Shown here: piece by piece, positions 4,188-62,826 of the stretch | Layout: every line of letters starts with the position of its first letter | Numbering within the stretch: position 1 is the first letter of the stretch | DNA from: Anaerolineae bacterium | GTDB lineage: Bacteria > Chloroflexota > Anaerolineae > Promineifilales > Promineifilaceae | Direction of reading: 5' to 3' | DNA: 64,000 nt | Assembly (NCBI GenBank): GCA_007123775.1 | Contig: SLGK01000001.1 | Location: 2,120 to 66,119, forward strand | Program-made: the position numbers and the translations under genes | Notes under the pieces: model-generated | What the model was told of the DNA's origin: nothing | What the model saw: only the letters and a program-made list of their open reading frames with translations | The model's database searches: none

Positions 4188-4242
4188 GTGCGAGTAGCGA
4201 GTGGTGGGTAGCGAGTGGCGGGTAGCGAGTAGCGAGTGGTGC
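4188..4242. repeat. Heptamer tandem array (GCGAGTA/GCGAGTG/GTGGGTA family), about 7.5 units
   Basis: gcgagta gcgagtg gtgggta gcgagtg gcgggta gcgagta gcgagtg, read directly between the methyltransferase stop and the RNA-ligase start. Confidence 0.9.
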
Positions 4243-4260
4243 CGGACACACGGACCGATA

Positions 4261-4929
4261 TTAAACCTCATCTCTCCGAGCCACAATAATGGCTACCGGC
4301 AGTCCCCACATGGACAGCCGGGACTGACTTTGAATCGTGAAGCCCGCTTTTTCTAGCTCTGTGTGAGCATAAATAGGGCGACAGTCCACTAAAACGGGCA
4401 GCCTGTCATGGAACCACTCATAAACACGAACGGCCGTTTTTGGCTCTTTGACCATGGAGACGACGACGATACGGCCGTTTGGTCGGAGAGCAGCATGAAT
4501 TTGCTCCAAAACAAGTGGGATTTCCGGGGTATCGAACAGTTCAAGGGTAAAGCTCATAAACAGCGCATCAAAACGGCCGTGGCTAAAAGGCAGTTGTGCC
4601 CCGTCTCCCACCTGCAACGATACTCGCTCTGCCAGACCCGCTTCTTGCACACGCTCCTGGGTAACGGCCGCCATTCCCGCCGATATATCCAGCCCATAGA
4701 CGTGTCCATCCGGCCCCACGGCCTGAGCCAGACTCACAATGGCGTGCCCGGTGCCGCAGCCAATCTCCAATATTTGCTCACCCTCGCGGGCCGCCAATGC
4801 TTGCAAACCAAGATTGCGGTATTTCTTCTCACTGGCCCCCACGAGCCAATCATACCAGCCGCTCAGGCGATCATAGTTGGCTTTAGCTTCTTTCTTGGTA
4901 CGGGTCACTGCTCTAATAGGGTTGTCCAT
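4261..4929 (-). CDS. Class I SAM-dependent methyltransferase (UbiE/Methyltransf_11-like)
   Basis: Motif I ILEIGCGTGH, post-I acidic residue (YGLDIS), and 222-aa size typical of small-molecule or RNA class I methyltransferases. Confidence 0.85.
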   Translation of the reverse strand: MDNPIRAVTRTKKEAKANYDRLSGWYDWLVGASEKKYRNLGLQALAAREGEQILEIGCGTGHAIVSLAQAVGPDGHVYGLDISAGMAAVTQERVQEAGLAERVSLQVGDGAQLPFSHGRFDALFMSFTLELFDTPEIPLVLEQIHAALRPNGRIVVVSMVKEPKTAVRVYEWFHDRLPVLVDCRPIYAHTELEKAGFTIQSQSRLSMWGLPVAIIVARRDEV

Positions 4930-5132
4930 TCTGGTGGGTGGTGCAAATCATGGTCCATTACGGTCGTGGTTATCCTAAACCGTTCAGCCCGTGCCGTGTA
5001 CTGCGCCACCCGGAACCTTTCACCCTATTGGATTCTCTCGTATAATAGACAAACATAGGACGAATTACGAGTTACGAATGGTAGGTTGTAATGGAAGCGG
5101 CCGTTTTACAACGGTCATGATGGAGAAAACTG

Positions 5133-5483
5133 ATGACAGTACAGTATGTCACAACAGTACAGTATGTCACAAACGAACAGGGTAGGCAAGTTGGTGTTTT
5201 GCTGGATATGGCATTATATCGTTGGTTGACCTCTGAGCAAACAACCGACCCAGACTTGCTCATAGGGATGACCACTGCCGAACTTGAGGCATTAGCCGAA
5301 AGTAAGTTGGCACCTGATGTCCAGGAAAAAATTAGCGATCTGCTGGCTGTGCAACAGGCAGACACCCTGTCCGCCGCCCAAGAAGTAGAATTAGACCGTT
5401 TGCTGAGTCACATCGACCAGCTTACCATACTGAAAACACGTGCCCGCTACACGTTGGCCCAGCAACAGGCCATGACGCGATGA
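5133..5483 (+). CDS. Hypothetical small protein translationally coupled to the HNH gene
   Basis: 116-aa ORF whose stop overlaps the next start (ATGA at 5480-5483). The N-terminus carries a perfect 18-bp tandem duplication (TVQYVT x2). Confidence 0.55.
   Translation: MTVQYVTTVQYVTNEQGRQVGVLLDMALYRWLTSEQTTDPDLLIGMTTAELEALAESKLAPDVQEKISDLLAVQQADTLSAAQEVELDRLLSHIDQLTILKTRARYTLAQQQAMTR
5136..5171 (+). repeat. Perfect 18-bp tandem duplication inside the CDS
   Basis: acagtacagtatgtcaca occurs twice back to back (5136-5153 and 5154-5171). Confidence 0.95.
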
Positions 5484-5897
5484 GTGCTTACGTACCCGTT
5501 GGATTACAAAGGCACATACGAGAGCAATTTGCTAATTGCTGCGCCTATTGTCACACGGCCGAAAATTTAACCGTTGCGATTTTTGAGTTTGAGCACATCG
5601 TGCCGCGTATGGCCGGAGGCAAAACGGTTGCGGCTAAACTTTGCCTGGCCTGCCCCACGTGCAATCGGTACAAAGCAACTCGCCAGGCATTCGCGGATAC
5701 TGTTACGAACCATGTTTCATCCGCAACGTCAAAAATGGACAGAACACTTTGCGTGGGATGAGACAGCTACCAGGTTGACCGGTTTAACGGCAACTGGTCG
5801 GGCCACAATTGCCGCTCTGCACATGAATCGGGAACAGCTTGTCCGAGTGCGTCGCATGTGGGTCACACTGGGCAAGCATCCGCCTAGAATAAAATGA
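5480..5897 (+). pseudogene. HNH endonuclease, split by a frameshift near 5700-5715
   Basis: Frame A (5480-5761) carries CCAYCH...FEFEHIVP...CPTCNRYK (HNH/zinc-finger core). Frame B (5574-5897) continues with FHPQRQKWTEHFAWDE...GLTATGRATIAALHMNR...LGKHPP, the usual C-terminal half of this family. The two halves join only with a 1-nt shift. Confidence 0.65.
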
Positions 5898-6025
5898 CAC
5901 CGTTGCAGGCAGCGCCAGACACGGGTTGGCCGGATCTTGTTTAGCCAAAACCGTTCGGTAAATGACCAATAATAGTCTACGGTCATTGCTCACATGACCG
6001 TTCTCTGGCATAATTTCCTCCGTTT

Positions 6026-6238
6026 ATGAACGAATCATTTGTCATCACCAAACGGCTGCTCGGCCTCGGCTTCATCCTGCTGGGAGGCGCAGCCATTGTG
6101 GGCATGTTGGCCCTCAACCTGCTCGGCCTCACCGCTCACAGCGGCATCGGTCCCGCCCAGCAGCGGGCTATGCTGGCGGCGGCTGTGGTGGTCGTGGTGG
6201 GAGTTACTTTATTGCCGTTGAGTAACCGTGAAACGTAA
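6026..6238 (+). CDS. Small hydrophobic membrane protein (hypothetical)
   Basis: 70-aa ORF with two hydrophobic helices. No recognisable motif. Confidence 0.4.
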   Translation: MNESFVITKRLLGLGFILLGGAAIVGMLALNLLGLTAHSGIGPAQQRAMLAAAVVVVVGVTLLPLSNRET

Positions 6239-6305
6239 AGCGTAAAACGTAAGGCGTAAAACGTAATTAACCCCTTACGCATTACGCATTACTTTTTACG
6301 CATTA
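6229..6305. repeat. Inverted pair of heptamer arrays (CGTAAAG/CGTAAAA/CGTAAGG versus TTACGCA)
   Basis: Left arm 6230-6266, loop ttaacccc, right arm 6275-6305. The arms are partly complementary through the TTACG/CGTAA core. Confidence 0.85.
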
Positions 6306-6310
6306 TCACC

Positions 6311-7984
6311 ATGCCATTCATCAAACAAGAAAACCAATCCCCCCTCATCTGGCTGCCGCGACTGTTGCTGGTGCTGGCACTGCTGGCCTTTGTAGGCTAT
6401 TTTATCGTTTATGCTATTTACGCCTTTGCCCTGTTCCAGTTCCCCTTCGACTATGACCAGGGCGAAGGCTTTGAGCTGATGGATACGTTGCTGTTCAGTC
6501 AGGGGGAATGGCCCTACCGCAACATCGACGAATATCCCTTCTACTCTTCCAACTACCCACCCCTCTTTCACGTGGTGATTGTGCCGCTGGTTTGGCTGTT
6601 TGGGCCGCAGTATTGGACGGGGCGGCTGGTTTCTTACCTGGGCACGCTGATTACGGCGGCGGCCATTGGCTATGCGGTACAGCGCTACGGCCGTCGCTGG
6701 TGGCTGTCGGTGCTGTGCGGGCTGGCCTTTCTGGCCTCCAACTACGTCTACCAGGTGGGGCCGCTGTTCCGGCAGCACATGTTCATGGTGATGTTTGAGA
6801 CGCTGGCGGTGGTGCTGCTGGCGCTGACGGTAGATCGGGAAGAAAAGGAAGGCAGGCGGTTCAACGGCCGTTTCCTCATTGTCATGCTCCTTCTACTTTC
6901 TGCTGGCTACACGAAGCAATTGGCTTATGCCACCGTCGCCGCTGTTTTCATCTTTCTCTTTTTGCGTCAGCCCAAACGGGCCGTGCTGTGGGCCGTGCCC
7001 TTTGCGGCCGTGACCGGCCTGATTTACCTCTGGATCGATTGGGCCACCAACGGCATGTGGACGCTCAATACCATCACGGCCAACGTTAATCCCATCGTGC
7101 CCGGCCAGATGGAAGGGCTGTACCGGCAGTGGTTCCGGCTGCACATGATCATTACCGTGGTGGCCGCGCTGTATGCCTTTTACCAACTGTACCAGGAGCG
7201 GCTGTCCCTTTTTACGGTCTGGTTTGGGCTGGCAGTGGTCAATGCGGCTACGTCTGGCACCTGGGGTGCGGGGGCGTCCTACTTTACTACGGCCATTGCC
7301 GCCAGTTGTATTCTGACCGGCCTGGCTTTCGGCCGCCTGCTCAACTGGCTGGAGCGGCATCAGGATGATCGCTTTTTGCCGGTGACATTTTACGGCCGTA
7401 TCTGGCAGCTCCCCAAGCCAGCCGGCCCGCTCTTGCCCATCGGTGCCTACAGCCTGGTGGCCATACTCTTTCTGATGCAGGCGGACCGGATGTTCCACAT
7501 GCCCACCCACACCCCTACCCTGGAACGAATTGCTGAATTGTTGGGGAAGGAAACGGCCGTTTACATCTCCCCTCAAACCTCCTGCTCTGCCCCACGTCCG
7601 CCAGAACGCATACCGTATGTTGATTCGGCCGGCGTGTCGCTGCTGGGCCGGCCGCCCAACGCTGCCGACACCGCCGCCGGTCGGCAGATTGTGGCCTTGA
7701 TTGCTGAGGGAGAAACGGCCGCTTTTGCCGAAGACGCCGGTTTTAATTTATACCTGGGCCGGGATGTGGTCACCAATCCCACCCAACTGCTCAACCTCTA
7801 CCATTACGGCGCGGTAGACCTGACCGAGATGCTGGGTATGCTAGATCGGCAGGAATTTGACACGGTGGTTTTGCGCGCCCAATTCTATCCGCCGCCGGTG
7901 CTGGATATGATCGGCCAGCGCTATGAGACGACCGACCTGGTGCAGATGAACGGCTTTGTTTATTGCGTGATGCGGCCGAGATAG
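6311..7984 (+). CDS. GT-C-fold membrane glycosyltransferase (ArnT/PMT_2-like)
   Basis: 557 aa with about 10 hydrophobic helices. Acidic first-loop motif FDYDQGEGFE after TM1 and a soluble C-terminal ~150 aa. Confidence 0.7.
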   Translation: MPFIKQENQSPLIWLPRLLLVLALLAFVGYFIVYAIYAFALFQFPFDYDQGEGFELMDTLLFSQGEWPYRNIDEYPFYSSNYPPLFHVVIVPLVWLFGPQYWTGRLVSYLGTLITAAAIGYAVQRYGRRWWLSVLCGLAFLASNYVYQVGPLFRQHMFMVMFETLAVVLLALTVDREEKEGRRFNGRFLIVMLLLLSAGYTKQLAYATVAAVFIFLFLRQPKRAVLWAVPFAAVTGLIYLWIDWATNGMWTLNTITANVNPIVPGQMEGLYRQWFRLHMIITVVAALYAFYQLYQERLSLFTVWFGLAVVNAATSGTWGAGASYFTTAIAASCILTGLAFGRLLNWLERHQDDRFLPVTFYGRIWQLPKPAGPLLPIGAYSLVAILFLMQADRMFHMPTHTPTLERIAELLGKETAVYISPQTSCSAPRPPERIPYVDSAGVSLLGRPPNAADTAAGRQIVALIAEGETAAFAEDAGFNLYLGRDVVTNPTQLLNLYHYGAVDLTEMLGMLDRQEFDTVVLRAQFYPPPVLDMIGQRYETTDLVQMNGFVYCVMRPR

Positions 7985-8011
7985 TTGATAGTTGACGGTT
8001 GATAGTTATGG
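7984..8011. repeat. Heptamer array GTTGATA/GTTGACG/GTTGATA/GTTATGG
   Basis: Four phased heptamers between the stop at 7982-7984 and the scpA ATG. The last unit contains the ATG at 8008. Confidence 0.8.
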
Positions 8012-8730
8012 GTAATTACACGATTGATTTGCCACTATTCTCCGGGCCGCTGGACTTGCTGCTCCATTTGATTGAGCGGCAGGAGCTGGACATTACGGCT
8101 ATATCGCTGACGCAGGTGACAGCCCAATATCTGGCACAGATTGAGCAGTTGAAACAAAATCGGCTGGAGAATCTGATTGACTTTTTGGTGGTAGGCGCCC
8201 GGCTGACGGTGATCAAAAGCCGGGCACTGCTGCCAGAAACACTCACTTTTGCCGGGGACGAAGAGGAAGAAGAAGACCCGGCCGAGGCGTTGATCAGGCA
8301 GTTGAAGCAGTATAAGCGGTTTAAGGAGGCGGCCACCTGGCTGCATGGACGGGAGGAGCAGGGCTGGCGCACCTATTTGCGCGTGGCACCGCCGCCCAAA
8401 GTGGAGAAGCAGCTTGATTTGTCGGGGGTGACGGTGCAGACATTGTACACGGCCGTTCTCGATCTCCTCATCCGCCTTTCTGACCAGGAAGAGAGTGTGA
8501 GTCTGGTCAAACCGCGCCGCATCACCATCGAGCAGCAGCTTGGTCGGCTGCGCTACCGGTTGAAACAACAACGGCCGTTTCTTTTCCACGACCTGCTTTC
8601 GTCCCAACGGGATCGCACCGAGCTATCCGTTACCCTACTGGCCTTACTCGAGCTAATCAAGCGGCAAGAAGCCATCGCCCACCAGCCCGTCATGTTCGGC
8701 CCCATCGAAATTCGCCCCCCAGAAGTGTAG
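8008..8730 (+). CDS. scpA: Segregation and condensation protein A (kleisin)
   Basis: N-terminal FSGPLDLLLHLIERQELDITAISLTQVTAQYL is the ScpA signature; acidic linker EEEEED; size about 240 aa. The ATG at 8008 is preferred over the TTG at 7999. Confidence 0.9.
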   Translation: MGNYTIDLPLFSGPLDLLLHLIERQELDITAISLTQVTAQYLAQIEQLKQNRLENLIDFLVVGARLTVIKSRALLPETLTFAGDEEEEEDPAEALIRQLKQYKRFKEAATWLHGREEQGWRTYLRVAPPPKVEKQLDLSGVTVQTLYTAVLDLLIRLSDQEESVSLVKPRRITIEQQLGRLRYRLKQQRPFLFHDLLSSQRDRTELSVTLLALLELIKRQEAIAHQPVMFGPIEIRPPEV

Positions 8731-8798
8731 AGTGTAGAGATAGAGATAGAGATAGAGGACACGCACTACCACTCTATCTCTACACTCTATACTCTATC
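8725..8798. repeat. Inverted pair of short tandem arrays (GTGTAGA x2 plus GATAGA x3 versus CTCTATC/TCTACAC)
   Basis: Left arm 8725-8757, right arm 8772-8798, between convergent scpA and the VanZ-like gene. Both gene ends lie inside the arms. Confidence 0.85.
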
Positions 8799-9121
8799 TT
8801 TGAGGTGACCCAAGCTGCCAGACCGCCCAGGCAGTCGATGACCACATCGACCACGTTACCGTCGCGGCCGGGGATGAAGGTTTGGTGGTACTCGTCGCTG
8901 ATGGCGTAAACGGCCGTTAGCAGCAGCGCCCGATCCCATCGCCCCAGCGCGAAGTGGGCCAGCCAGGCCAGGATAAAATAGGCGACAAAATGCGCCCCCT
9001 TTTTTACCAGCAAATCAATTGCGCCAAATTGGGGAATCTCACCGGCAGGTTGATGGGAAAAATAGAAGATGACCCCCATCCAGACCAGCAGAGGCAGCCA
9101 GCGCCAGATAGCTACCACCAC
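8780..9121 (-). CDS. VanZ-like family membrane protein
   Basis: KKGAHFVAYFILAWL and DEYHQTFIPGRDGNVVDVVIDCLGG are typical VanZ motifs. 113 aa with 4 helices. Confidence 0.85.
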   Translation of the reverse strand: MVVAIWRWLPLLVWMGVIFYFSHQPAGEIPQFGAIDLLVKKGAHFVAYFILAWLAHFALGRWDRALLLTAVYAISDEYHQTFIPGRDGNVVDVVIDCLGGLAAWVTSKIEYRV

Positions 9122-9519
9122 TGCTGTTCTTTGCCGAACTGCATGATCAGATAGCCGGCTCCGGCTATTAGCAGTAAGGGAATGAGGCCATAAATGAAGG
9201 CAAAGCCACCGAAACGGAGCAGGAAAAGGAGGCCCAAAATAAACGCCCCCCAGTAAAACCAGCGGCGACGGCTAGAACTTCCTTCGGCCGGCAAATCCTC
9301 GTTGCGGGTTTTGGCGGCACTAATGCACGCCTGCCGATTGCCCACCCGCAGCACATCGCCACTCAGGGTCCATTGGCAGCCACAAAGCTCGCACTGATAA
9401 CAGGTGCGGGCCGGTTGGCCGGTCTCATAATCGGTACGCTCTAACACGCGACCACCGCAATGGTCACAATCAAAACCGCTGTCGTTCCAGTTGGTCTCAA
9501 TGTCTATGCCCATACCCAA
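9112..9519 (-). CDS. Zinc-ribbon protein with C-terminal membrane anchor (hypothetical)
   Basis: CDHCGG...CYQCELCGC gives two CxxC pairs, followed by two hydrophobic helices. Overlaps the VanZ-like start by 10 nt. Confidence 0.55.
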   Translation of the reverse strand: MGMGIDIETNWNDSGFDCDHCGGRVLERTDYETGQPARTCYQCELCGCQWTLSGDVLRVGNRQACISAAKTRNEDLPAEGSSSRRRWFYWGAFILGLLFLLRFGGFAFIYGLIPLLLIAGAGYLIMQFGKEQQWW

Positions 9520-9635
9520 AATTATAAGCCGTAATTACGTTTGCGTAAATGAATCGCTAAGAAATCTTACATTTTGAGGCTGGCTTATGTCTGGCCGTAG
9601 TGTTAAAATGAGCGGCAACAGAGGAGAAAGATCAG

Positions 9636-9914
9636 ATGAAAGTCAATTTTTACGCCACATTACGCCAGATCACCGGCCAAAAGACAGTTGAGTTTGATTT
9701 AGAGGCAGGTATCACGGTGCAACAATTGTTGGACGCCGTGCTGGCCCGCTACCCGGACATGCGGGATGATTTATTGGATGAAAACGGCCGTCTTTATGGT
9801 CACGTGCATCTATTTATAAACGGCCGTGATGCCCCCTACCTCGACGACGGCCTGGAAACCACCATCAAGCCCAATGACAAGGTAGACCTGTTCCCGGCCG
9901 TAGGTGGCGGCTGA
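9636..9914 (+). CDS. MoaD/ThiS-family ubiquitin-like sulfur-carrier protein
   Basis: 92 aa. MKVNFYATLRQITG... has a beta-grasp-like pattern and ends in Gly-Gly (FPAVGGG). Confidence 0.8.
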   Translation: MKVNFYATLRQITGQKTVEFDLEAGITVQQLLDAVLARYPDMRDDLLDENGRLYGHVHLFINGRDAPYLDDGLETTIKPNDKVDLFPAVGGG

Positions 9915-10183
9915 TGGCCGCCGAACCAATTACCCAGGTGCGTGAAATACGCGGTATTCCCCTCTGGCTATTACAAAAATATCTGGTGGAGGCGGGGGGA
10001 ACGGCCGTTGCTGACGGGCAAGTACAGGCCCACGGCTGGCAGGCCACGTTAGAGCAAATCGACGATTTTCAGATCGGTTCCTTGCGCGTGGGACAGGTAA
10101 GAATGACGGTTGTAGGAACGGCCGAACCGCTGGCCCGACTCAACGAAATCCTCGAAGTCAAACTCCTGCGTGCCGGGGGGTAA
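9914..10183 (+). CDS. Hypothetical small protein also ending in Gly-Gly
   Basis: 89-aa ORF coupled to the MoaD-like gene by a TGATG overlap at 9912-9916. C-terminus is ...KLLRAGG. Confidence 0.5.
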   Translation: MAAEPITQVREIRGIPLWLLQKYLVEAGGTAVADGQVQAHGWQATLEQIDDFQIGSLRVGQVRMTVVGTAEPLARLNEILEVKLLRAGG

Positions 10184-10240
10184 GTAGGGGCAGACCCGTG
10201 TGTCTGCCCCCTCTAGGCGAACACATGGGTTCGCCCCTAC
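10184..10240. repeat. GTAGGGGC-family palindromic element (two hairpins)
   Basis: GTAGGGGCAGAC-ccgtgt-GTCTGCCCC followed by GGCGAAC-acatgg-GTTCGCCCCTAC, starting 1 nt after the TAA stop. Confidence 0.85.
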
Positions 10241-10260
10241 ATACGTTTATTAGTTCAACA

Positions 10261-10296
10261 AAAAAGCCTGGTTTCACAAAAGAAACCAGGCCTTTC
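10261..10296. terminator. Bidirectional Rho-independent terminator between convergent genes
   Basis: Perfect 10-bp stem GCCTGGTTTC/GAAACCAGGC (10266-10275 / 10282-10291) flanked by AAAAA on the left and CTTTC on the right. It looks strongest for the minus-strand aor transcript. Confidence 0.7.
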
Positions 10297-10299
10297 AAC

Positions 10300-10343
10300 T
10301 TACATACTTACTTTCTACCTTCTGCCTTCTTAATTCTTACTTC
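10300..10343. repeat. Heptamer array (TCTACCT/TCTGCCT/TCTTAAT/TCTTACT)
   Basis: Six phased TCTNNNT heptamers immediately 3' of the aor stop. Confidence 0.7.
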
Positions 10344-12161
10344 TTATACAACGCCCAACTCTTGCAGCTTCGATTCAGGCACCACGCCATTCTCCCAGCC
10401 GCGAGCCGTGTAATACTCATCCAACATCAGGTCTAACTCACACACATGCCCTTCCGAACCGGGCATCGTCGACGGCTCTTCGGTGAAACGCTTCGGCAGA
10501 TAGTCGCTGCCCTCGCGGAAACCGGCCAGATTGTTGTAATGGCGCTCCAGGTTATAGATGCGCTCACCAGCGACCAGCACGTCATCCATGGTGAATGGCA
10601 CGCCGACCATCGCCGAATATTGGGCCGCATACTCCTCAGCCCCTTCGGCAAACGCGCTAAACTTGCACAGGTCCAGGCTGTCAGAGAAAGCGTGGATGTC
10701 TTGCAGCAGCTTGGTCAACTCACCCTTGCCTTTCCACTCCAGCGGGTCTGTTTGCAGCGGAATGAGGCCTAGCTCACTAGCGGGGGTGTAAGCCCGCAGG
10801 TGGCAGGCACCCCGGTTGCTGGTGGCATAGGCAATGCCCATACCCTTCAAACCACGCGGATCGTAGGCCGGTACACCCTGGCCTTTCACCGTCATGGCAA
10901 TTTCCATATGGCCATAATGCTCGGCCACCGCATTCACGCCGTTGGCCAGCACGTTACCAACACCCTCACGCTGGGCTACCTTCTTCATGGCTTCAATCAT
11001 ACCCATGTAGTCGCCTGATTTCAGACCACCGTCGCCATTGACAAAACCTTGCTCGGTCGCTTCGATGTAAGTACCTAACACATTGCCAATTTCGATGGCA
11101 TCCATGCCAAAGTCATTGGCCATCTGGATCATCTTGGCAATCGAGGCAGCGTTGTCGTTGCCACAGTTAGCCCCTAAAGCCCAGGCCGGCTCATACTCAA
11201 AGCTCTCCATATGGGTACCGGCAAACTCGCCCTCAGTAATCATGACCTCTTTCTTACAGGCCACGGGGCAGGCATGACAGGTCGGGTCTTTAACCAGGAT
11301 ATTTTCTTTGACGTACTCGCCACTGATGTTTTCGGCTTTCTCACCAAAGGAGGTGACACGGCCGTTATAAGCCGGTAACGCTCCCATATTGCTGGTGATG
11401 TTCATCAACACGTTGGTGCCATATACGGACAGGCCACCCTTACGCGGGCTGGTGATGTTCTTCTCGTCCATAATGGTGGCTAACGCCTGGCTGTGAGCGG
11501 GCTTCCAGGCTTCGGCGTCTTTCGGTTTGGGAAAATTCTTTTTGGCTTTGACTACCACTGCCTTAAGATTCTTACTGCCGCCGACACAACCGGTGCCGCC
11601 ACGACCGCTGGCCCGATCATCCTCATTGACCCAGCAACCATAGCGCACCATGTTTTCACCCGCCGGCCCAATCGCCATCACGGTCAAATCCTTTTCACCA
11701 TACAGATCACGGAAATGCTGAATCGTTTCATGGATGCCCTTGCCCCACAGATGGGAGGCATCTAAAAGCTCCATGCCGTCGTCGTGGATGTAGAGATAAA
11801 CAGGCTTGTCGGCTTTGCCTTTGAAAATGAGGCCATCATAGCCAGCCCAGCGCAGACGGGCGGCCGACCAGCCCCCATGATGGCTGTCGGTAACAGTGCC
11901 GGTCAGGGGAGATTTGGTGACAATCGCCATACGGCCGCTCATGTTAGCGGCCGTTCCTGTCAGGGGGCCGTTCATGAAGCAAAGCAAATTGTCGGGGGAA
12001 AGGGGGTCTACTTCGGGACCGTTTTCTAACATATAGCGCACGCCGAGACCGCGTGCGCCAATATACTTCAGTGCCCATTCTTCGGGAATAGGCTTCACCT
12101 CTATTTTACCTGCTGTCAGGTCAATGTGGGCCATTTGATTGGCGTATCCTCCGAGGTTCAT
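10344..12161 (-). CDS. aor: Aldehyde:ferredoxin oxidoreductase (tungsto/molybdo-pterin AOR family)
   Basis: 605 aa. The N-terminus MNLGGYANQMAHIDLTAGKIEVKPIPEEWALKYIGARGLG is the canonical AOR start, and the length and internal Cys motifs (CHACPVACKK) fit the [4Fe-4S]/pterin-binding family. Confidence 0.92.
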   Translation of the reverse strand: MNLGGYANQMAHIDLTAGKIEVKPIPEEWALKYIGARGLGVRYMLENGPEVDPLSPDNLLCFMNGPLTGTAANMSGRMAIVTKSPLTGTVTDSHHGGWSAARLRWAGYDGLIFKGKADKPVYLYIHDDGMELLDASHLWGKGIHETIQHFRDLYGEKDLTVMAIGPAGENMVRYGCWVNEDDRASGRGGTGCVGGSKNLKAVVVKAKKNFPKPKDAEAWKPAHSQALATIMDEKNITSPRKGGLSVYGTNVLMNITSNMGALPAYNGRVTSFGEKAENISGEYVKENILVKDPTCHACPVACKKEVMITEGEFAGTHMESFEYEPAWALGANCGNDNAASIAKMIQMANDFGMDAIEIGNVLGTYIEATEQGFVNGDGGLKSGDYMGMIEAMKKVAQREGVGNVLANGVNAVAEHYGHMEIAMTVKGQGVPAYDPRGLKGMGIAYATSNRGACHLRAYTPASELGLIPLQTDPLEWKGKGELTKLLQDIHAFSDSLDLCKFSAFAEGAEEYAAQYSAMVGVPFTMDDVLVAGERIYNLERHYNNLAGFREGSDYLPKRFTEEPSTMPGSEGHVCELDLMLDEYYTARGWENGVVPESKLQELGVV

Positions 12162-12408: not shown

Positions 12409-12482
12409 GACGAAAGACCGAAGACGAAGGACGGAATTATTCTGGCCATCGGTCTTTCGTCCTCCGTCCTCGGTCCTCGGTC
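12409..12482. repeat. Inverted pair of heptamer arrays (GACGAAA/GACCGAA/GACGAAG/GACGGAA versus GGTCTTT/CGTCCTC/GGTCCTC)
   Basis: The arms form a long imperfect hairpin just 3' of the NrfD-like gene stop at 12513. Confidence 0.85.
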
Positions 12483-16626: not shown

Positions 16627-16688
16627 TGAAACGTAATGCGTAGAACGTAATGCGTAATTTTTACGTTTTACTTTTTACGTTTTACGCT
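16627..16688. repeat. Inverted pair of heptamer arrays (ACGTAAT/GCGTAGA versus TTACGTT/TTACTTT)
   Basis: aaacgtaatgcgtagaacgtaatgcgtaa ... ttacgttttactttttacgttttacgc, directly upstream of the LysR gene. Confidence 0.85.
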
Positions 16689-18483: not shown

Positions 18484-18490
18484 ACGAGTT

Positions 18491-18554
18491 AGTGCGTAGT
18501 GCGTAATGCGTAATGATAAAGGTCTACGCACTACGTACCACGCACTACGTTACG
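18491..18554. repeat. Inverted pair of heptamer arrays (GTGCGTA/GTGCGTA/ATGCGTA versus CTACGCA/CTACGTA)
   Basis: Left arm 18491-18515 and right arm 18524-18554, between the cytochrome stop and the rhodanese start. The ORF-track start at 18513 reads through it. Confidence 0.85.
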
Positions 18555-18563: not shown

Positions 18564-20366
18564 ATGAAAACCCGTTTGTACCTACTGATTACACTATTAT
18601 TGAGCCTTAGCCTGCTCCTGATGGCTTGTAACGGTGCGGCCGATCCCGTCGTGGAAGAGCCGCCGGCCGTTGAAGTCGAAGAACCGGCCGTGCCGGAACC
18701 AGAAGTTGAAGAGCCGGTTGAGGAAGTGGTAGAACCAGAACCGGAACCAGAACCGGCCTTTACTGAAGAGGATTTGGATGCGGCCGTTAACGCCATGCTA
18801 GGCCGGATGACCGCCTACAACACCATTCGCCCCGACGCCCTCAATGAAGCCCTGGCCGAAGACCCGCCCTTCATTCTGGACGTGCGTCGGCCGGCCGAAC
18901 TGGAAGAGCTAGGCCACATCCCCGGTGCGGTTCACGTACCCCTGAACGATCTGCACGAAAATCTGGATAAACTACCCAGCTTTGATACCCCCATCGTCAC
19001 CTACTGTGCCGTAGGCTGGCGCTGCACCATTGCCATGACCGCCATGGAAACCTTGGGCTGGCAAAATGTGCGTGCGCTGGTTGGCGGCAGCTTTGGCGGC
19101 TGGGCCAATGCCGGATATGAAATCGTAGACGGCTTCCCGCCTGAAGCCGAAGTCCTCAATGCGGCCAGCCCTGACCCAGAACTGCTGGCTGAAGTACAAC
19201 AAATGATGGCCAATATCCCGCAAGGCTTTGGCGTTATCACCACCGACGACCTGTTTGCCAAACTGGTTGATACCCCGGACGTGCTGTTGATTGACGTGCG
19301 CCGCGCCGAAGAATTGGAAGATAACGGCATCATTGAATCGGACAACCAGATGCAAATTGCCATTGAAGATTTTGTTGCCATGCGGGACATGTGGCCGCAA
19401 GATAAGGATGCGGAGATCATCATCTACTGTGGCACCGGCCACCGTTCCACCATTGCCATGACCATCATGTGGATGTATGGCTATACCGACGTCCGCAGCA
19501 TGAAGGGTGGTATTGCCGAATGGCGTGCCGATGGCTACCCCGTTCTGGGTGGCGCCGAGCCGGAAGAGGCTGACCTGGATGCCGCTTTTGCCAATTTCAT
19601 CGACAATATGGTGGCTTATAACACCATCCGGCCGGCCGCTTTGAATGAGCTGCTGATCGAAGACCCGCCTCCCTTCATCCTCGACGTGCGCCGTCCGGCC
19701 GAATTGGAAGAACTGGGCCACATTGAAGGTGCCGTTCACATCCCCCTGCCCGAAATTGGGGATAACCTCGACCTGCTGCCCAGCTTTGACACGCCGATTG
19801 TGACCTACTGTGCCGTAGGCTGGCGCTGCACCATTGCCATGACCGCTCTAAGCGCCATGGGCTGGACTGACGTCAAGGCGTTGGTCGGTGGCAGCTTTGG
19901 TGGTTGGGTCAATGAAGGCTACCCGGTCGTTGACGGCCCGGCGGCTGAGGCGATGGTTCTTAACGCAGCCAGCCCCGACCCGGCTCTGGCCGAAGCATTG
20001 GGCGATATGCTGCGGAATGTGCCGCAGGGCTTTGGCGTCATCACCACCGATGACCTGGCCCTGGAGTTGATTGACAAGCCAGAGATGCAGTTGATCGACG
20101 TGCGGACAGTAGGTGAGGTTGAGGAAAACGGCCGTATCGAATCTGACGGCCAACTGCTCATCCCCATCGAAGCATTCATTGAGCGCATGGATGAATGGCC
20201 GGCCGACAAAGATATGGAAATTGTTATCTACTGTGGCACCGGCCACCGCTCGACCATTGCCATGACCATCATGTGGAGCTATGGCTATACCAACGTCCGC
20301 AGCATGAAGGGTGGCCTGGCGGAATGGAGTGCTGATGGCTATCCGGTGGTGGAGTTTGCTCAATAG
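18564..20366 (+). CDS. Lipoprotein with four rhodanese (sulfurtransferase) domains
   Basis: Signal plus lipobox LLLMACNG preceded by GGAGGA. Acidic PE-rich linker. Two CAVGWRC and two CGTGHRS active-site loops. It is built as a tandem duplication of a two-domain unit. Confidence 0.88.
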   Translation: MKTRLYLLITLLLSLSLLLMACNGAADPVVEEPPAVEVEEPAVPEPEVEEPVEEVVEPEPEPEPAFTEEDLDAAVNAMLGRMTAYNTIRPDALNEALAEDPPFILDVRRPAELEELGHIPGAVHVPLNDLHENLDKLPSFDTPIVTYCAVGWRCTIAMTAMETLGWQNVRALVGGSFGGWANAGYEIVDGFPPEAEVLNAASPDPELLAEVQQMMANIPQGFGVITTDDLFAKLVDTPDVLLIDVRRAEELEDNGIIESDNQMQIAIEDFVAMRDMWPQDKDAEIIIYCGTGHRSTIAMTIMWMYGYTDVRSMKGGIAEWRADGYPVLGGAEPEEADLDAAFANFIDNMVAYNTIRPAALNELLIEDPPPFILDVRRPAELEELGHIEGAVHIPLPEIGDNLDLLPSFDTPIVTYCAVGWRCTIAMTALSAMGWTDVKALVGGSFGGWVNEGYPVVDGPAAEAMVLNAASPDPALAEALGDMLRNVPQGFGVITTDDLALELIDKPEMQLIDVRTVGEVEENGRIESDGQLLIPIEAFIERMDEWPADKDMEIVIYCGTGHRSTIAMTIMWSYGYTNVRSMKGGLAEWSADGYPVVEFAQ

Positions 20367-20443
20367 AGTGTAGAGTGTAGAGTGTAGAGTGTAGAGTGTA
20401 GAGTGTAGAGGGCATTCCTCTATCTCTACACTCTACACTCTAG
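20364..20443. repeat. Inverted pair: (AGAGTGT)x6 versus CTCTATCTCTACACTCTACACTCTA
   Basis: Six perfect heptamers from 20364, loop gcatt, complementary arm 20417-20442, between convergent genes. Both stop codons lie in the arms. Confidence 0.9.
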
Positions 20444-25979: not shown

Positions 25980-26171
25980 TTCTCTTTCCTCTTTGGACAG
26001 AAGGCAACAGCATTTCCTATACTTAATTGCATTATATAGGATAGAATTGGGCAACGCAATCATCAACCAGCGGGGTTACGGATCATTGTCGCTATGAAAT
26101 TGACGATCAACGCCAATTTGCCTGACATCCATAACCCAACCGGCAACAGCCCGATGGTACAATACACCGTG

Positions 26172-26201
26172 TTCGTAATTCGTAGTTCATAGTTCATACT
26201 T
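26172..26201. repeat. Heptamer array TTCGTAA/TTCGTAG/TTCATAG/TTCATAC
   Basis: Four phased heptamers immediately upstream of the RBS of the 26217 gene. Confidence 0.8.
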
Positions 26202-26216
26202 CAAAAGGAGTTTCCC

Positions 26217-29646: not shown

Positions 29647-29711
29647 TAGCGTAAAGCGTAATGCGTAAAACGTAACAAGGAGGCTTTACGCATTACGTTT
29701 TACGTTTTACG
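29647..29711. repeat. Inverted pair of heptamer arrays (GCGTAAA/GCGTAAT/GCGTAAA versus TTACGCA/TTACGTT)
   Basis: Left arm 29647-29675, loop caaggaggc, right arm 29685-29711. It is preceded by GTAGGGGG straight after the TAG stop. Confidence 0.85.
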
Positions 29712-38158: not shown

Positions 38159-39812
38159 CCTTTATCCTTATGAACGGCGCAAGCTGCTGTAGGGCCTCGT
38201 CCCGCCAGGCATCGCTATCATCCCCTTCTTCCAGGGCAAACAGCCGCTCGCGACAAAGAATTTGTAGCAGCACAGGCCAGCCGTCGCTCTGCGCCAAAAT
38301 CCAGGCCACGTCATCGGCGGCAAAGGGTATCGGGGAGCTGCCGATCAGGGCCACCGCCTCCTCCTCGCTAAACGGGCCTAGCGTGGCCATATAGCCGAAT
38401 ATATTAAAGAAGGGAGAACCGTAACCACTGTGCTGAGCCAGTTGGTCGGGTGGTTGGGGACCAGCCATAATAAAACCCAGGTTGCCGCTGACCTGATTGG
38501 TGGCTAACGAGCGCAGGCTTTCCCAGAAGGCATCGTCAAGGTCAGGATAGCGTTGTAAAGCCACGCCGATTTCATCAAGCAAAATAACGGTAGGCTGGCG
38601 CAGATGATCACTGACGGCATCCAGGAAATCTTCCACATAACAAGGATCAGGGACGGGTATCTCCATCTGATTCAGCAAGTAACGCATCAATGGTTCTCTG
38701 CCACCTAAGCGTGGGTCCTGAAAATCGACAAAGATCCAGCGCTGCTGTCCGGGCTGGGGCAGCCAGTCGGCCTTTTGGTCGGGCCGACGCTGAGCGGCCG
38801 ATACCTGGCTGATTGTGTGCAGAAAGCGCAGCAAAGAGGTTTTACCGCTGCGTCGCGGCCCAATAATGGCACCGTTCTGTAAAGGTGGACGCCTGACTAA
38901 ATGGCAGAGCCGCTTCAGCTCTCGCTGCCGGCCGAAGAATTGGGCGGGATGGGTGATAGGCGGACCGGCAATAAAGGGTTGAGAAGGTTGAAAACTGAAA
39001 GTTGTGGGCTGATCTATTACCCCTGGACGTGGTGACGGAGCGTGTCTGGGGTTTTCGTAATTCGTAATGCGTAATTCGTAATTTTCCAATTCGCCGCTGC
39101 GAATTTGCTCACGGAGTTCGCTGGTAGCGGCGGCCGGCTCAACGCCCAGTTCGTCCATCATAATCTGGCGGCAGGTTTCGTAATGTGAGAGCGCCGCCCC
39201 GCGCTGACCGTTGAGCGCCAGAGCCGTCATCAAGTAGCGATGGGCTTCTTCGCGCACGGGGTCCAGGCGGATCATCTGGCGGGCGTAGGTAACGGCCGTT
39301 TCATAAGCAGCCCTGGCCGTCGCGTCAACCACCAGCCGCTGGCAGACAGACAACAGTTCATCTTGCAGAGACAACCGCTGCTGCGCCAACCATTCCTCAA
39401 AAACGGGGGCATCACGCACATAGAACTCTTCCAGAAACTCGCCACGGTAGAGGGCCACCGCCGCCACCAGGTCGTCGGCGGTAGGCTGGGGTGAATCTAC
39501 CAGTTGGCGAAATTGGGTCACGTCTAGCCAATGGTCCGCTTCGCGCTTAAAGCGGAGGCTGTGGCTAGAAATATCCAGGTAAGGGGCCACAAACTGGCGC
39601 AGCTTGAGCAAGTCGCCGCGCAGATTGCGCCGGGCATCACTGTCTGGCAGATCACTCCACAGCAGGTGGGCTAGATATTGACGGGTGTGAGAACGGCCGT
39701 CTACCGCCAGAAAACATAGCAGCGCCTGCGCCTTCACCGAGGCCAGGTCAGACAGCGGCCGATCGGCCAAACTCAGCTTCAATTGTCCCATTAAGGCCAG
39801 CTTTAGTACCAT
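38148..39812 (-). CDS. SARP-type (OmpR-like wHTH plus BTAD) regulator fused to a P-loop ATPase (subfamily A)
   Basis: The N-terminus LMGQLKLSL...KAQALLCFLAV...LWSDLPDSDARRNLRGDLLKLRQ and YRGEFLEE...AHRYLMTALALNGQRGAALSHYETCRQIMMDELGVEP form a SARP/BTAD pattern. Then Walker A IIGPRRSGKTSLL, Walker B VILLDEIG, and SPFFNIF. Confidence 0.8.
   Translation of the reverse strand: MVLKLALMGQLKLSLADRPLSDLASVKAQALLCFLAVDGRSHTRQYLAHLLWSDLPDSDARRNLRGDLLKLRQFVAPYLDISSHSLRFKREADHWLDVTQFRQLVDSPQPTADDLVAAVALYRGEFLEEFYVRDAPVFEEWLAQQRLSLQDELLSVCQRLVVDATARAAYETAVTYARQMIRLDPVREEAHRYLMTALALNGQRGAALSHYETCRQIMMDELGVEPAAATSELREQIRSGELENYELRITNYENPRHAPSPRPGVIDQPTTFSFQPSQPFIAGPPITHPAQFFGRQRELKRLCHLVRRPPLQNGAIIGPRRSGKTSLLRFLHTISQVSAAQRRPDQKADWLPQPGQQRWIFVDFQDPRLGGREPLMRYLLNQMEIPVPDPCYVEDFLDAVSDHLRQPTVILLDEIGVALQRYPDLDDAFWESLRSLATNQVSGNLGFIMAGPQPPDQLAQHSGYGSPFFNIFGYMATLGPFSEEEAVALIGSSPIPFAADDVAWILAQSDGWPVLLQILCRERLFALEEGDDSDAWRDEALQQLAPFIRIKDEA
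39054..39081. repeat. Heptamer array (TTCGTAA x2, TGCGTAA, TTCGTAA) embedded in the SARP-ATPase coding sequence
   Basis: Read on the minus strand it encodes ENYELRITNYE in the linker between the BTAD and ATPase domains. Confidence 0.85.
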
Positions 39813-52069: not shown

Positions 52070-52208
52070 CTATTTTTTCCTGTGAGGACAACGGATTAGG
52101 AGAAGGAACGGATTTTTTATCTGTTCCTTCCCCTAATCCGCTGTTCTCTTTCCTTTATAAACGACCAGAATTATAATACAGCCATTCAGGGAAAGGTAGG
52201 TCACTCAT

Positions 52209-52283
52209 AGTACGTAGTGCGTAGTGCGTAGTGCGCAAGCAGACGGACTACGCACTACGCAATACGCAATACGCAATACGCAA
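52209..52283. repeat. Inverted pair of heptamer arrays (TACGTAG/TGCGTAG x2 versus ACTACGC x2/AATACGC x3)
   Basis: Read directly upstream of the helicase ATG at 52285. The ORF-track start at 52231 translates the array. Confidence 0.85.
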
Positions 52284-52284: not shown

Positions 52285-54570
<2,286 letters not shown>

Positions 54571-54579
<9 letters not shown>

Positions 54580-54618
54580 AACGTAAAACGTGATGCGTAA
54601 TGCGTAGTGCGTAGTGTG
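54571..54618. repeat. Heptamer array (AACGTAA x2, then GATGCGT/AATGCGT/AGTGCGT/AGTGTGG)
   Basis: Single-arm array that contains the helicase stop codon (TAA at 54577-54579). Confidence 0.8.
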
Positions 54619-61436: not shown

Positions 61437-61553
61437 GGGCGCACCCGCGTGTGCGCCCTGGTTCTCGGCAAACACAACTGTATGCGGGCAGACACGGGTG
61501 TGTAGGGGCAGGCACAGGGGTGTATGCGGGCAGACACGTGGGTCTGCCCCTAC
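61433..61553. repeat. GTAGGGGC-family palindromic element cluster
   Basis: GTAGGGGCGCAC-ccgcgt-GTGCGCCC, then GCGGGCAGACACGGGTGTGTAGGGGCAGGCAC..., then GCGGGCAGAC-acgtgg-GTCTGCCCCTAC. It fills the gap between convergent genes and includes the TAG stop at 61434. Confidence 0.85.
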
Positions 61554-61554
61554 G

Positions 61555-62043
61555 TTATAACTCTTTAGGACGCCAGATATTTAACAACGTGCCGGTGATA
61601 GCCTCATGGCAGTCGGCCCACCGCGTAACCGGCAGCCTGATATGAGCCAGAGCGGCCGTAGGCATTCGCTCGTAATGGCCAGTCAGTTCCTCAACCAATT
61701 CTTCCATACCCGGATTGTGACCAACCACCATTACGCGCTGATAGGCGTCATCTACCTGCCGCAGTTGAGCCAGATAGCTCTCAGGCCCGGCATGGTAAAA
61801 AGAGCGCGTCAGTTGCAGACTGTCCTCGTAATTGCTGTTGAGAGCCACCAATTCGGCCGTACTCAAGGCGCGTTCGGCCGTACTGGTGATGATTAAATCT
61901 GGCGTAAGCCCCTCGTCCCGCAGCAGGCGGCCCATACGGGGTGCATCTTGCCGTCCGCGCTTGTTGAGCGGTCGGTCATGGTCAGCCAGGCGGCTGTTTG
62001 ACCAGCTTGATTTGGCGTGGCGAAGAATGAGTAGTTCTTTCAT
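61555..62043 (-). CDS. sixA: Histidine phosphatase superfamily protein (SixA-like)
   Basis: MKELLILRHAKSSW contains the RHA/G catalytic motif. 162 aa with a later VVGHNP His motif. Confidence 0.8.
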   Translation of the reverse strand: MKELLILRHAKSSWSNSRLADHDRPLNKRGRQDAPRMGRLLRDEGLTPDLIITSTAERALSTAELVALNSNYEDSLQLTRSFYHAGPESYLAQLRQVDDAYQRVMVVGHNPGMEELVEELTGHYERMPTAALAHIRLPVTRWADCHEAITGTLLNIWRPKEL

Positions 62044-62059
62044 TGAAACTCTAGTATTT

Positions 62060-62097
62060 GTGCGTAGTGCGTAGTAAAAGGACTACGCACTACGCAC
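62060..62097. repeat. Perfect hairpin built from heptamers (GTGCGTA GTGCGTA GT / AC TACGCAC TACGCAC)
   Basis: 16-bp perfect stem (62060-62075 / 62082-62097) with loop aaaagg, between the clpP stop and the sixA-like start. No adjacent T-run. Confidence 0.9.
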
Positions 62098-62105
62098 CAC
62101 GTGGC

Positions 62106-62741
62106 TTACAGTTCGTCAGCCGACTTTACAATCTGACCAACCAGGCCATAATCCTGGGCCTCTTTAGCCGTCATCCAATAGTTACGGTCCGTGTCTTTTT
62201 CCACTTTCTCCAGCGGCTGGCCGGTCTGCTCGGCGAAGATTTGGTTGAGCCTGTGGCGCATCTTGAGAATTTCTTCAGCTTCGATAGCGATGTCGGCCGC
62301 CTGACCGCGCACGCCGCCCATCGGTTGGTGGAGCAGAAAGCGTGTGTTAGGCAGGCTGTAGCGGTTCTCGCGCTCGGCTGCCGCATAGATCAAGGCACCG
62401 GCACTGGCAACCCAGCCGGTGCCGACAATTTTAACGGGTGATTGCACAAAGCGAATCATGTCAAAAATAGTGTCGCCTGACTCGACGTGGCCGCCGGGAG
62501 AGTTAATGAAGATACGGATAGGCTCATGGGAGTCACCGTCCAGCACCAGCAATTTTTGGCAGACCTCCTGAGCCAGTTTCATATCAATTTCACCAAAAAT
62601 GGTAATGGTCCGTGTTTCGAGCATACGCTCTAGCAACGGCCGTTGCGGTTCCGGTTGTGGGGCTGCTGTCTCCTCCCCATTCTCTTCATCTGGCTCGGTC
62701 ATGGTGTCAGGTTCAAGGTCATCATCGTCAAATCTAATCAT
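62106..62741 (-). CDS. clpP: ATP-dependent Clp protease proteolytic subunit, with an acidic ~45-aa N-terminal extension
   Basis: TITIFGEIDM, GWVASAGALIYAA (catalytic Ser context), FLLHQPMGG (His context), AKEAQDYGLVGQI. Confidence 0.93.
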   Translation of the reverse strand: MIRFDDDDLEPDTMTEPDEENGEETAAPQPEPQRPLLERMLETRTITIFGEIDMKLAQEVCQKLLVLDGDSHEPIRIFINSPGGHVESGDTIFDMIRFVQSPVKIVGTGWVASAGALIYAAAERENRYSLPNTRFLLHQPMGGVRGQAADIAIEAEEILKMRHRLNQIFAEQTGQPLEKVEKDTDRNYWMTAKEAQDYGLVGQIVKSADEL

Positions 62742-62760
62742 GGTTTGGTTCCTTATTCAA

Positions 62761-62826
62761 GTGGCGGGTAGCGAGTGGCGGGTGGCGAGTGGCATACACC
62801 CGCAACCCGCTACTCGCCACTCGCTG
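62761..62826. repeat. Inverted pair of heptamer arrays (GTGGCGG/GTAGCGA/GTGGCGG/GTGGCGA versus CCCGCTA/CTCGCCA/CTCGC)
   Basis: Left arm 62761-62793 and right arm about 62799-62826, between the eno stop and the clpP start. Same heptamer family as 4188-4242; the 24191-24286 array has a related GTGGCGRA unit but period 8. Confidence 0.85.

Follow-up and report, generated by a model that had tools for sequence, protein, structure and literature searches.

The stretch of contig SLGK01000001.1 analyzed here (64,000 nt, called the window in the following), which comes from an uncultured member of the Anaerolineae (Chloroflexota), carries tandem arrays of 7-nt units at its gene boundaries, most of them followed by a reverse-complementary array with which they fold into a long hairpin. 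We read these elements as extragenic palindromes built of tandem heptamers which, in an uncultured genus of the Anaerolineae, make up a class of hairpins at gene boundaries resembling the repetitive extragenic palindromes (REPs) of Proteobacteria, and put the probability of this reading at about one half. Judging from sequence comparison, it looks as if the hairpin is selected and heptamer slippage is this lineage's way of building and remodelling it, because hairpins are kept in the same spacers of related species, their arms co-vary, and other unit families or non-periodic hairpins substitute for them. Novel aspects are the phylum, Chloroflexota, the repertoire of several unit families, and the evidence, from comparison, of selection and of co-evolving arms; heptamer arrays, inverted pairs included, are already described in other bacteria.

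Arrays and hairpins in the window

A search of the window with Tandem Repeats Finder (TRF) yielded 22 arrays of period 7 with 2.8 or more copies, four arrays of period 6, one of period 8 and none of periods 5, 10 or 11; twenty windows shuffled with preservation of local composition contained 0.15 period-7 arrays on average. The arrays group into 18 loci. Under a simple gene model backed by Pfam hits, 17 of these are located in intergenic DNA, which makes up 7.7% of the window and of which the arrays account for 19%, and one lies in-frame within a gene. With head-to-tail 7-nt units that are in excess, mostly non-coding and present throughout the lineage, the arrays belong to the class of heptamer simple sequence repeats (SSRs). 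Their unit families are CGTAAAA/CGTAGTG, GTGTAGA, GCGAGTR, GACGAAR, GATAGTT and TTCTTAC, and families recur at two to nine loci within the 64 kb.

A preliminary description of this DNA, based on reading its letters, had already listed arrays; TRF recovers every one of them to within a few bases, and the families named there (CGTA, GTGTAGA, GTGGCGA/GTAGCGA, GACGAAG, GTTGATA, TCTNNNT) were assigned correctly. A period of 6 in part of one array (8735-8757), a period of 8 in another (24189-24264, 9.5 copies) and a perfect 16-bp hairpin at 62060-62097 are likewise confirmed. The placement of the arrays in spacers is right for the 17 intergenic loci, but not for 39054-39083, which lies in-frame within a BTAD-AAA regulator gene. 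As also proposed there, most loci are array/anti-array hairpins: at 11 of the 18, the array is followed by its reverse complement 5-45 nt away. All 11 fold into long hairpins with stems of 16-38 predicted base pairs (-20 to -52 kcal/mol, z-scores -4.5 to -7.7), and in no case did any of 200 dinucleotide shuffles match the native sequence. The 18 loci are:

4190..4237: single array GCGAGTR/GCGGGTA x6.9 with a 14-nt super-period (TRF); no fold, z +0.9; between two minus-strand genes, 23 nt 3' of a methyltransferase stop codon
5060..5079: short single array ACGAATT x2.9 (TRF), complement of the TTCGTAA family; divergent spacer
6227..6305: hairpin (CGTAAAR)x5.7 + (TTACGCA)x4.4; -28.1 kcal/mol, z -5.5; ends 5 nt 5' of ATG 6311
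7980..8007, plus strand: single array GATAGTT x4; fills a 22-nt spacer, provides the TAG stop of the upstream gene and adjoins the scpA ATG
8724..8797: hairpin AGTGTAG/TAGAGA (period 7, then 6) + complement; fold -36.3, z -5.4; between convergent scpA and vanZ-like genes, overlapping both stop codons
10309..10346: single array TACCTTC/TTCTTAA (TRF); convergent spacer, overlaps the stop of the aldehyde:ferredoxin oxidoreductase gene
12409..12482: hairpin GACGAAA/GACCGAA x4 + CGTCCTC x3.6; z -5.6; 30 nt 3' of an nrfD-like stop
16630..16686: hairpin CGTAATG/CGTAGAA + TTTTACG; z -4.9; divergent spacer, 17 nt 5' of a LysR-type gene start
18490..18549: hairpin (GTGCGTA/ATGCGTA) + complement; z -5.0; between multihaem cytochrome and rhodanese genes; 6 nt separate it from the stop and 14 nt, with a GGAGGA Shine-Dalgarno (SD) motif, from the ATG
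20364..20442: hairpin (TAGAGTG)x6.7, perfect, + (CTCTACA)x2.7; -46.1, z -7.7; between convergent rhodanese and rlmL-like genes, overlapping both stop codons
24189..24290: octamer array (AGTGGCGA)x9.5 + about 2.5 complementary units; -52.4, z -4.5; spans the lutB-lutC spacer, beginning at the stop codon and leaving 3 nt to the ATG
26171..26203, plus strand: single array GTTCGTA/GTTCATA x4.7; no fold; divergent spacer, 13 nt 5' of ATG 26217
29648..29711: hairpin (AGCGTAA)x4 + (TTTACGT)x3.9; z -5.4; 10 nt from an FAD-oxidase stop codon, with a tRNA 74 nt further on
39054..39083, minus strand: array (TTCGTAA)x4.3, 30 nt; in-frame in the BTAD-AAA regulator gene 38148-39812, in an inter-domain linker
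52208..52283: hairpin (TAGTGCG)x4 + (TACGCAA)x5; z -5.3; divergent spacer, ends 2 nt before the ATG, without SD motif, of a UvrD-like helicase gene
54563..54616, plus strand: direct composite array CGTAAAA, then CGTAATG/CGTAGTG; no hairpin, z -0.3; overlaps the helicase stop codon
62060..62101: perfect 16-bp hairpin (GTGCGTA)x2.3 + (ACTACGC)x2.9; z -7.4; clpP-hisP spacer
62760..62825: hairpin (AGTGGCG/GGTAGCG)x4.9 + complement; z -6.6; eno-clpP spacer

The array within the regulator gene encodes ENYELRITNYEN, three heptamers corresponding to seven codons, and is identical in three other assemblies. The strain of the window is present in four independent assemblies, namely SRR7083929 and SRR490155 (both Logan), ERZ27301261 (ENA) and GCA_003562215.1 (NCBI), and all arrays are identical among them except for one single-nucleotide polymorphism (SNP). 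They are thus not an assembly artefact, a possibility that the preliminary description had raised and that we could discard also because arrays occur elsewhere in the genome and are conserved in other species.

Arrays fill their spacers nearly from edge to edge. Among spacers of at least 30 nt, they occupy 8 of 18 between co-directional, 4 of 8 between divergent and 3 of 6 between convergent genes, to which two shorter co-directional spacers are added. Since all three spacer types are occupied about half the time, the arrays are not specific to 3' ends, and the earlier impression that they lie typically between convergent or tandem genes, with a bias towards gene ends, has to be given up. Six arrays overlap the upstream stop codon (7980, 8724, 10309, 20364, 24189 and 54563) and others begin 4-11 nt past it. 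Downstream, arrays end 0-5 nt before a start codon without SD motif at 6305 (ATG 6311), 8007, 52283 (ATG 52286) and 24290 (ATG 24294).

As stable stem-loops directly 3' of a stop codon, which would work both ways between convergent genes, these hairpins bring intrinsic terminators to mind. They differ from these in their much longer stems, in lying upstream of genes in some divergent spacers, in being followed by a genuine terminator in one relative (L185, see below) and in the lack of a U-tract, neither strand having a T-run behind any of the 11. Canonical intrinsic terminators were rejected on this last ground, in agreement with the preliminary description, which had drawn the same conclusion from the missing T-run. 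A terminator scan of positions 4001-24000 called none of the hairpins and, with 18 calls as compared to 20.2 in shuffled sequence, showed no excess of terminators.

Two further candidates were discarded. An Rfam search of the window at gathering thresholds returned only the tRNA at 29786-29859, so that the hairpins match no known RNA family, and by inspection the units lack the G-runs of the G-quadruplex repeats of Xanthomonas and Nostoc.

Spacers free of arrays often contain a hairpin of another kind, one of them at 29866-29905. Two have long non-periodic inverted repeats (22737-22773 and 50391-50425), and one more such repeat, at 52084-52148, shares its spacer with a heptamer array; the arms of these repeats span 17-30 nt and are 87-100% complementary. 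With them, nearly every sizeable spacer holds some hairpin.

Orthologous spacers in related genomes

The nearest named relatives of the source strain are metagenome-assembled genomes (MAGs) of Ardenticatenaceae, Promineifilaceae and Caldilineales. The closest species representative in GTDB (L004), whose RlmL-like protein is only 83% identical, gave no orthologous comparison, its contig being too short and without synteny to the window, and the matches of a JGI metagenome scan with LutB were unusable for this purpose because none exceeded 69% identity. Via ClpP homologues of 95-82% identity, we reached seven further lineages with the same eno-clpP-hisP gene order (loci L168-L183; hisP stands for a histidine-phosphatase gene), and via rhodanese homologues three relatives for the region at 12-21 kb (L184, L185 and L186).

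Every one of the congener loci L168-L186 carries heptamer arrays, as do several loci from Ardenticatenaceae-like MAGs. Loci from these and other Chloroflexota MAGs have 0.2-0.36 period-7 arrays per kb, the units differing from those of the window; the roughly 45 control loci from Firmicutes in the same scan were almost array-free (6 arrays in total). Inverted heptamer or octamer pairs are also found in many unrelated JGI contigs, including L089, L090, L093, L104, L107, L116 and L134. In some other lineages octamer units replace heptamers, often as inverted pairs (L017 3-99 and 3409-3497, L022 2915-3017, L116 13932-19057, L090 3577-3951), an example from L116 being eight copies of CCTTTGCG paired with CGCAAAGG. 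The favoured repeat period thus appears to be lineage-specific.

Four-fold degenerate sites of clpP and hisP are only 41-59% identical between the congeners and the window, so neutral sites are close to saturation. Against this background, both the eno-clpP and the clpP-hisP spacer hold a heptamer hairpin in every lineage, that is, in the window and all seven congeneric ones. The clpP-hisP stem has the same base as the window at 32 of 32 positions in the three closest congeners (L168, L170 and L175), with the few flanking spacer bases scrambled, and in L176 differs by a single C-to-T change that retains a G-U pair. For the eno-clpP hairpin, identity is about 92%.

In more distant lineages, the units have changed in both arms together: GTGCGTA/TACGCAC became ATTGCGT/ACGCAAT or GGTGCGT/ACGCACC in the clpP-hisP spacer, and GCGAGTR became GCAGGTR or GTTGCAA in the eno-clpP spacer. 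Unit number also moves in step between the arms (2+2 to 3+3), and the mixed left arm of L183 (AGTGCGT, ATTGCGT) is exactly mirrored on its right (ACGCAAT, ACGCACT). Across the eight lineages, 93.8% of the cells in the clpP-hisP stem alignment are paired and three pairs (6 cells) have changed on both sides; none of 500 shuffles reaches the observed covariation score, and slid controls are 7-54% paired. These are compensatory base-pair changes of the kind used to recognize structured RNA, although conversion of one arm by the other in DNA leaves an identical pattern. In the four closest lineages, every change in the eno-clpP stem affects one partner of a pair and preserves wobble pairing. At a further boundary, the mnmA-iscS spacer, all units of both arms are CGTAAAA in some species and CGTGAAA in others.

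The 8-nt loop of the clpP-hisP hairpin reads ACCTTTTG in L178 (2161-2170) and is present as the reverse complement, CAAAAGGT, in L181 (10661-10670) and L182, the hairpins being otherwise identical. Hairpin-mediated micro-inversions of this kind are known from chloroplast spacers, and the flip is the signature that arm-arm recombination or template switching in DNA would leave.

The preliminary description had suggested comparing strains for variation in copy number. We found none: the consensus assemblies of the window strain (four to five) show no indel in any array, and seven population samples of one congener, again as consensus assemblies, differ over 11-15 kb by 6-16 SNPs and a single 4-nt indel, all of them outside the arrays. 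Copy number is also unchanged between lineages that have about 45% synonymous divergence.

One single array, GAAGGAT on the sense strand, is 98% conserved in three congeners (L168 583-609, L175 3496-3522, L176 3491-3517). It sits between two small genes, and each of its units combines an SD-like AAGGA with an ATG.

The second neighbourhood shows a turnover of families. In the cytochrome-rhodanese spacer, the GTGCGTA hairpin of the window corresponds to a decayed copy of it in L186, to a GTCAGTA hairpin of 7+7 units in L185 (-70 kcal/mol) and to a GC-rich hairpin without periodicity in L184. In the spacer 3' of the rhodanese gene, GTGTAGA units in the window are replaced by a hairpin of the GACCGAG family in L186, which has the same convergent neighbour, by CGTAAAA units followed by a textbook U-tract terminator in L185, and by an 18-bp non-periodic hairpin in L184. 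Heptamers upstream of the LysR-type gene are peculiar to the window; in their place L184 and L185 carry non-periodic palindromes, next to a conserved promoter-like sequence. As families and non-periodic hairpins swap in orthologous spacers, the hairpin at the boundary is the constant, and heptamers are its usual but replaceable material.

The arms also show some regularities. In all 26 hairpins of the genus (11 in the window and 15 in L168-L183, about 16 independent loci), the G-rich arm is the 5' arm, and, the elements being palindromic, the order is the same whichever strand is read; in other lineages, the G-rich arm comes first in 14 hairpins and second in 4 (G>C). As a result, stop triplets are concentrated in the 5' arms (63 as against 12 in the 3' arms), and 5' arms with a stop in each of the three frames are found at 11 of 20 loci. 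GTA or its complement TAC is present in 13 of the 17 units of the window, as compared to 21% expected (P about 1e-6), and every clpP-hisP orthologue has GTAG next to its loop; in lineages further away, AAT is preferred.

Probable selection and slippage, possible dispersal

On the reading we prefer, 7-nt (once 8-nt) runs fill about half of the spacers, and a run together with its reverse complement lets a single strand from either side, DNA or RNA, fold on itself. Units are gained, lost and homogenized in 7-nt steps, as the comparison indicates, probably by slipped-strand replication, and the arms may stay complementary by recombination or template switching between them in DNA. Purifying selection appears to preserve the boundary hairpin irrespective of the heptamer that builds it, and single arrays would be nascent or decayed hairpins. 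The role of the hairpins is most likely a structural one where transcripts meet: behind a stop codon, such a stem-loop would end, insulate or protect the upstream transcript despite its missing U-tract, as do the REPs and bacterial interspersed mosaic elements (BIMEs) of enterobacteria, and the stops in all three frames of the purine-rich 5' arm would halt ribosomes arriving from either direction.

Several observations weigh against this reading. There is no direct evidence of hairpin action in RNA, and selection at the RNA level is not demonstrated, since the sense strand is no more stable than the antisense strand; in a small sample of nine loci, sense folds better at three and antisense at five, with 16 and 13 G-U pairs, respectively. 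Arm-to-arm gene conversion could yield compensatory patterns without any selection for structure. In divergent spacers, arrays adjoin start codons as often as arrays elsewhere follow stop codons, and two hairpins end 2-5 nt before an ATG without SD motif, which disagrees with a 3'-end role. In L185, the heptamer hairpin is not the terminator, because a canonical one directly follows it. Seven of the 18 loci are single arrays, of which the three that were folded (4190, 26171 and 54563) have no structure. Finally, the comparison covers a handful of spacers, not the whole genome.

Some of these points are what one would expect if the arrays were a neutral by-product of heptamer-biased slippage, with non-coding DNA filling up with 7-nt arrays, inverted pairs arising by template switching at palindromes, and no function attached. 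Heptamer SSRs are over-represented in many bacteria, an excess for which slippage of the polymerase has been held responsible (Mrazek 2007, cited in PMC4692102). The absence of any preference for a spacer type and of a sense-strand bias, the single arrays, the very unequal arms at 20364 (6.7 and 2.7 units) and 24189 (9.5 and 2.5 units), the turnover of families at orthologous spacers and the terminator behind the array in L185 all fit such an origin. It leaves unexplained that the hairpins are far better conserved than four-fold degenerate sites, that copy number stays constant over about 45% synonymous divergence and through seven population samples, that another hairpin takes the spacer where heptamers are absent, and that arm orientation is fixed. 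We therefore consider a purely neutral origin unlikely.

The recurrence of the same families at many loci and in several species, and the replacement of one family by another in the same spacer, could also reflect non-autonomous mobile elements, similar to REPINs or MITEs, copied whole between spacers by a REP-associated tyrosine transposase (RAYT) or a transposase of the IS200/IS605 type that recognizes a GTAG-bearing hairpin. The prevalence of GTA/TAC in the units and the GTAG flanking the clpP-hisP loop agree with this. More specifically, a 27-nt stretch, CGTAAAACGTAAGGCGTAAAACGTAAT, with the same order of variant units is common to the window at 6227 and the non-orthologous locus L168 2113, a 20-nt arm of the GACCGAG family, GACCGAGGACCGAGGACGGA, to the window at 12405 (locus 12409..12482) and the non-orthologous L186 1898, and the loop AAAGG recurs in the GTGCGTA hairpins of three loci. 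At the level of sequence, the shared unit orders suggest REPIN-like dispersal, but with a small repertoire of units some identical orders are likely by chance. Moreover, the window ORFs scanned and the gene lists of the congener loci contain no Y1_Tnp, RAYT or other transposase domain; the hairpins have no conserved termini, target-site duplications or full-length consensus, and their loops and flanks mostly differ between copies. Variation unit by unit is also better explained by slippage than by copy-and-paste, and we regard mobile elements as quite improbable.

The strict 7-nt register and the lineage-specific core of the units, GTA here and AAT elsewhere, would suit periodic binding sites for a protein, either a single-strand binder covering about 7 nt per monomer (an OB fold of the cold-shock or S1 type) or a DNA-binding regulator, which tunes translation or transcription of the adjacent gene. 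Arrays adjoining starts without SD motif (6305/6311, 52283/52286, 8007) match the TAACTGA repeats of Beggiatoaceae, for which heptamer binding of the CspB type has been proposed (PMC4679880), and the conserved GAAGGAT array of the three congeners could be viewed in the same light. At least six unrelated unit families per genome are difficult to reconcile with one such protein, for which there is also no candidate; folding into hairpins would hide single-stranded sites, and non-periodic hairpins substitute in orthologous spacers. Binding sites are thus a decidedly remote explanation. Phase-variable contingency loci, in which changes of copy number toggle neighbouring genes, are effectively refuted at the available resolution: tandem SSRs do lie beside promoters and start codons, and copy number differs between species at some loci (GAGTGTA, 4.1 copies in L175 and 8.1 in L176), but it is not polymorphic in the window-strain assemblies or the congener samples, is kept across deep synonymous divergence, and the neighbours are housekeeping genes (eno, clpP, scpA, lutBC).

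Known repeats and a hyper-abundant palindrome

REPs, BIMEs and REPINs are imperfect palindromes confined to the spacers of Proteobacteria, with roles that include protection of mRNA 3' ends, and their spread requires a RAYT transposase. The hairpins described here are like them in being extragenic imperfect palindromes, often just past stop codons and within operons, in several dispersed and conserved families, without U-tract and with GTAG in many units. They are unlike them in their 7-nt periodicity, which REPs lack internally, in sharing only the unit where REP copies share a full-length consensus, and in that no RAYT was seen in the genes scanned.

The short tandemly repeated repetitive (STRR) heptamers of heterocystous cyanobacteria have been on record since 1990, with no established function. 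The units described by Mazel et al. in that year are reportedly CCCCAGT (STRR1), TTGGTCA (STRR2) and CAACAGT (STRR3). The resemblance to these noted in the preliminary description holds as far as STRR-like heptamer arrays at gene boundaries with distinct unit families are concerned: in both cases tandem 7-nt units form several families per genome, are nearly all intergenic and often lie within operons (including the GGGGA(C/T)T units of Nostoc). The arrays are not the STRR family itself, as the host is a member of the Chloroflexota and not a heterocystous cyanobacterium and the units are unrelated to STRR1-3. Only few Nostoc arrays are paired (PMC4692102), in contrast to the hairpins at 11 of 18 loci in the window.

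The inverted-pair layout, which the preliminary description had considered distinctive, is not new. Each Xanthomonas genome has 70-75 convergent pairs of intergenic GGGAATC arrays and anti-arrays; from species to species the arrays keep their place and their single or paired state but vary in length, and most are transcribed (Rehm et al. 2015, PMC4692102). Inverted pairs also occur in the many metagenomic contigs mentioned above. The Xanthomonas arrays belong to one G-rich family able to form G-quadruplexes, whereas here we have at least six families without G-runs; compensatory evolution of the arms, loop inversion and a fixed arm orientation are seen here and do not feature in the passages of PMC4692102 consulted. 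Marine Beggiatoaceae, some cyanobacteria and Bacteroidetes have TAACTGA direct repeats of 2-6 copies, mostly intergenic (MacGregor 2015, PMC4679880). These are similar to our arrays in that they often end one to a few nucleotides before a start codon, in spacers without a canonical SD motif, but they form a single family of fixed orientation to the downstream gene and are inverted in only 1 of 170 sets (PMC4679880). Literature searches for heptamer repeats in Chloroflexi, Anaerolineae or Ardenticatena found no relevant report.

The clade offers a favourable case for the study of heptamer arrays, since it has several families, mostly as hairpins, across syntenic relatives of graded distance, and comparison shows conservation well above the neutral rate, co-evolution of the arms, and interchange of heptamer and ordinary hairpins at one and the same boundary. 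Because they are conserved, co-evolving and interchangeable, the question moves from whether the arrays are slippage junk to what the hairpin does at the boundary.

A further parallel to cyanobacteria lies in the co-occurrence of heptamer arrays with a hyper-abundant palindrome, HIP1 in their case and ACGGCCGT here, so that a second phylum with filamentous members shows this pairing. The 64 kb contain 92 copies of the octamer ACGGCCGT, about one per 700 bp, most of them within genes and in a preferred codon phase. It is the core of the decamer palindrome AACGGCCGTT, which has 29 occurrences in the window as compared to 0.07 expected; 26 of these lie within genes, and 17 have a codon phase in common. 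Sites include 4167, 29872, 29890 and 32605. The palindrome has a similar density in all congeners (L168-L183) and in several loci from Ardenticatenaceae-like MAGs (L019, L021, L036, L037, L005). By analogy, it looks like a Chloroflexota counterpart of HIP1 (GCGATCGC); no report of a HIP1-like palindrome in Chloroflexota was found in the literature.

A bolder proposal, which we regard as speculative and do not expect to hold, is that the hairpins of filamentous Chloroflexota are a selectively kept, self-renewing class of gene-boundary elements with parallels in cyanobacteria, Xanthomonas and Beggiatoaceae. An unknown dedicated activity would recognize a 7-nt-periodic, GTA-cored hairpin with the G-rich arm first and copy or regenerate it between spacers, while the cell would use the products as U-tract-independent terminators, insulators and three-frame stops; the co-occurrence with ACGGCCGT would then reflect a shared mechanism of DNA maintenance. 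Such an activity, if real, would explain the unit orders and loops shared by non-orthologous loci.

Three other repeats of the window may be mentioned. At 5136-5172, a perfect 18-nt direct repeat, ACAGTACAGTATGTCACA x2.1, forms the start of an ORF without Pfam hit (5133-5483), where it gives MTVQYVTTVQYVT. The tRNA gene at 29786-29859 is followed at 29866-29905 by two GAAACGGCCGTTTC palindromes that jointly form an 18-bp hairpin. The convergent spacer after hisP contains, at 61467-61543, about three copies of a 20-22-nt tandem repeat, GGCAGACACAGGTGTATGCG, and congeners hold heptamer arrays (ACTACGC or GAATTGT) in the matching spacer.

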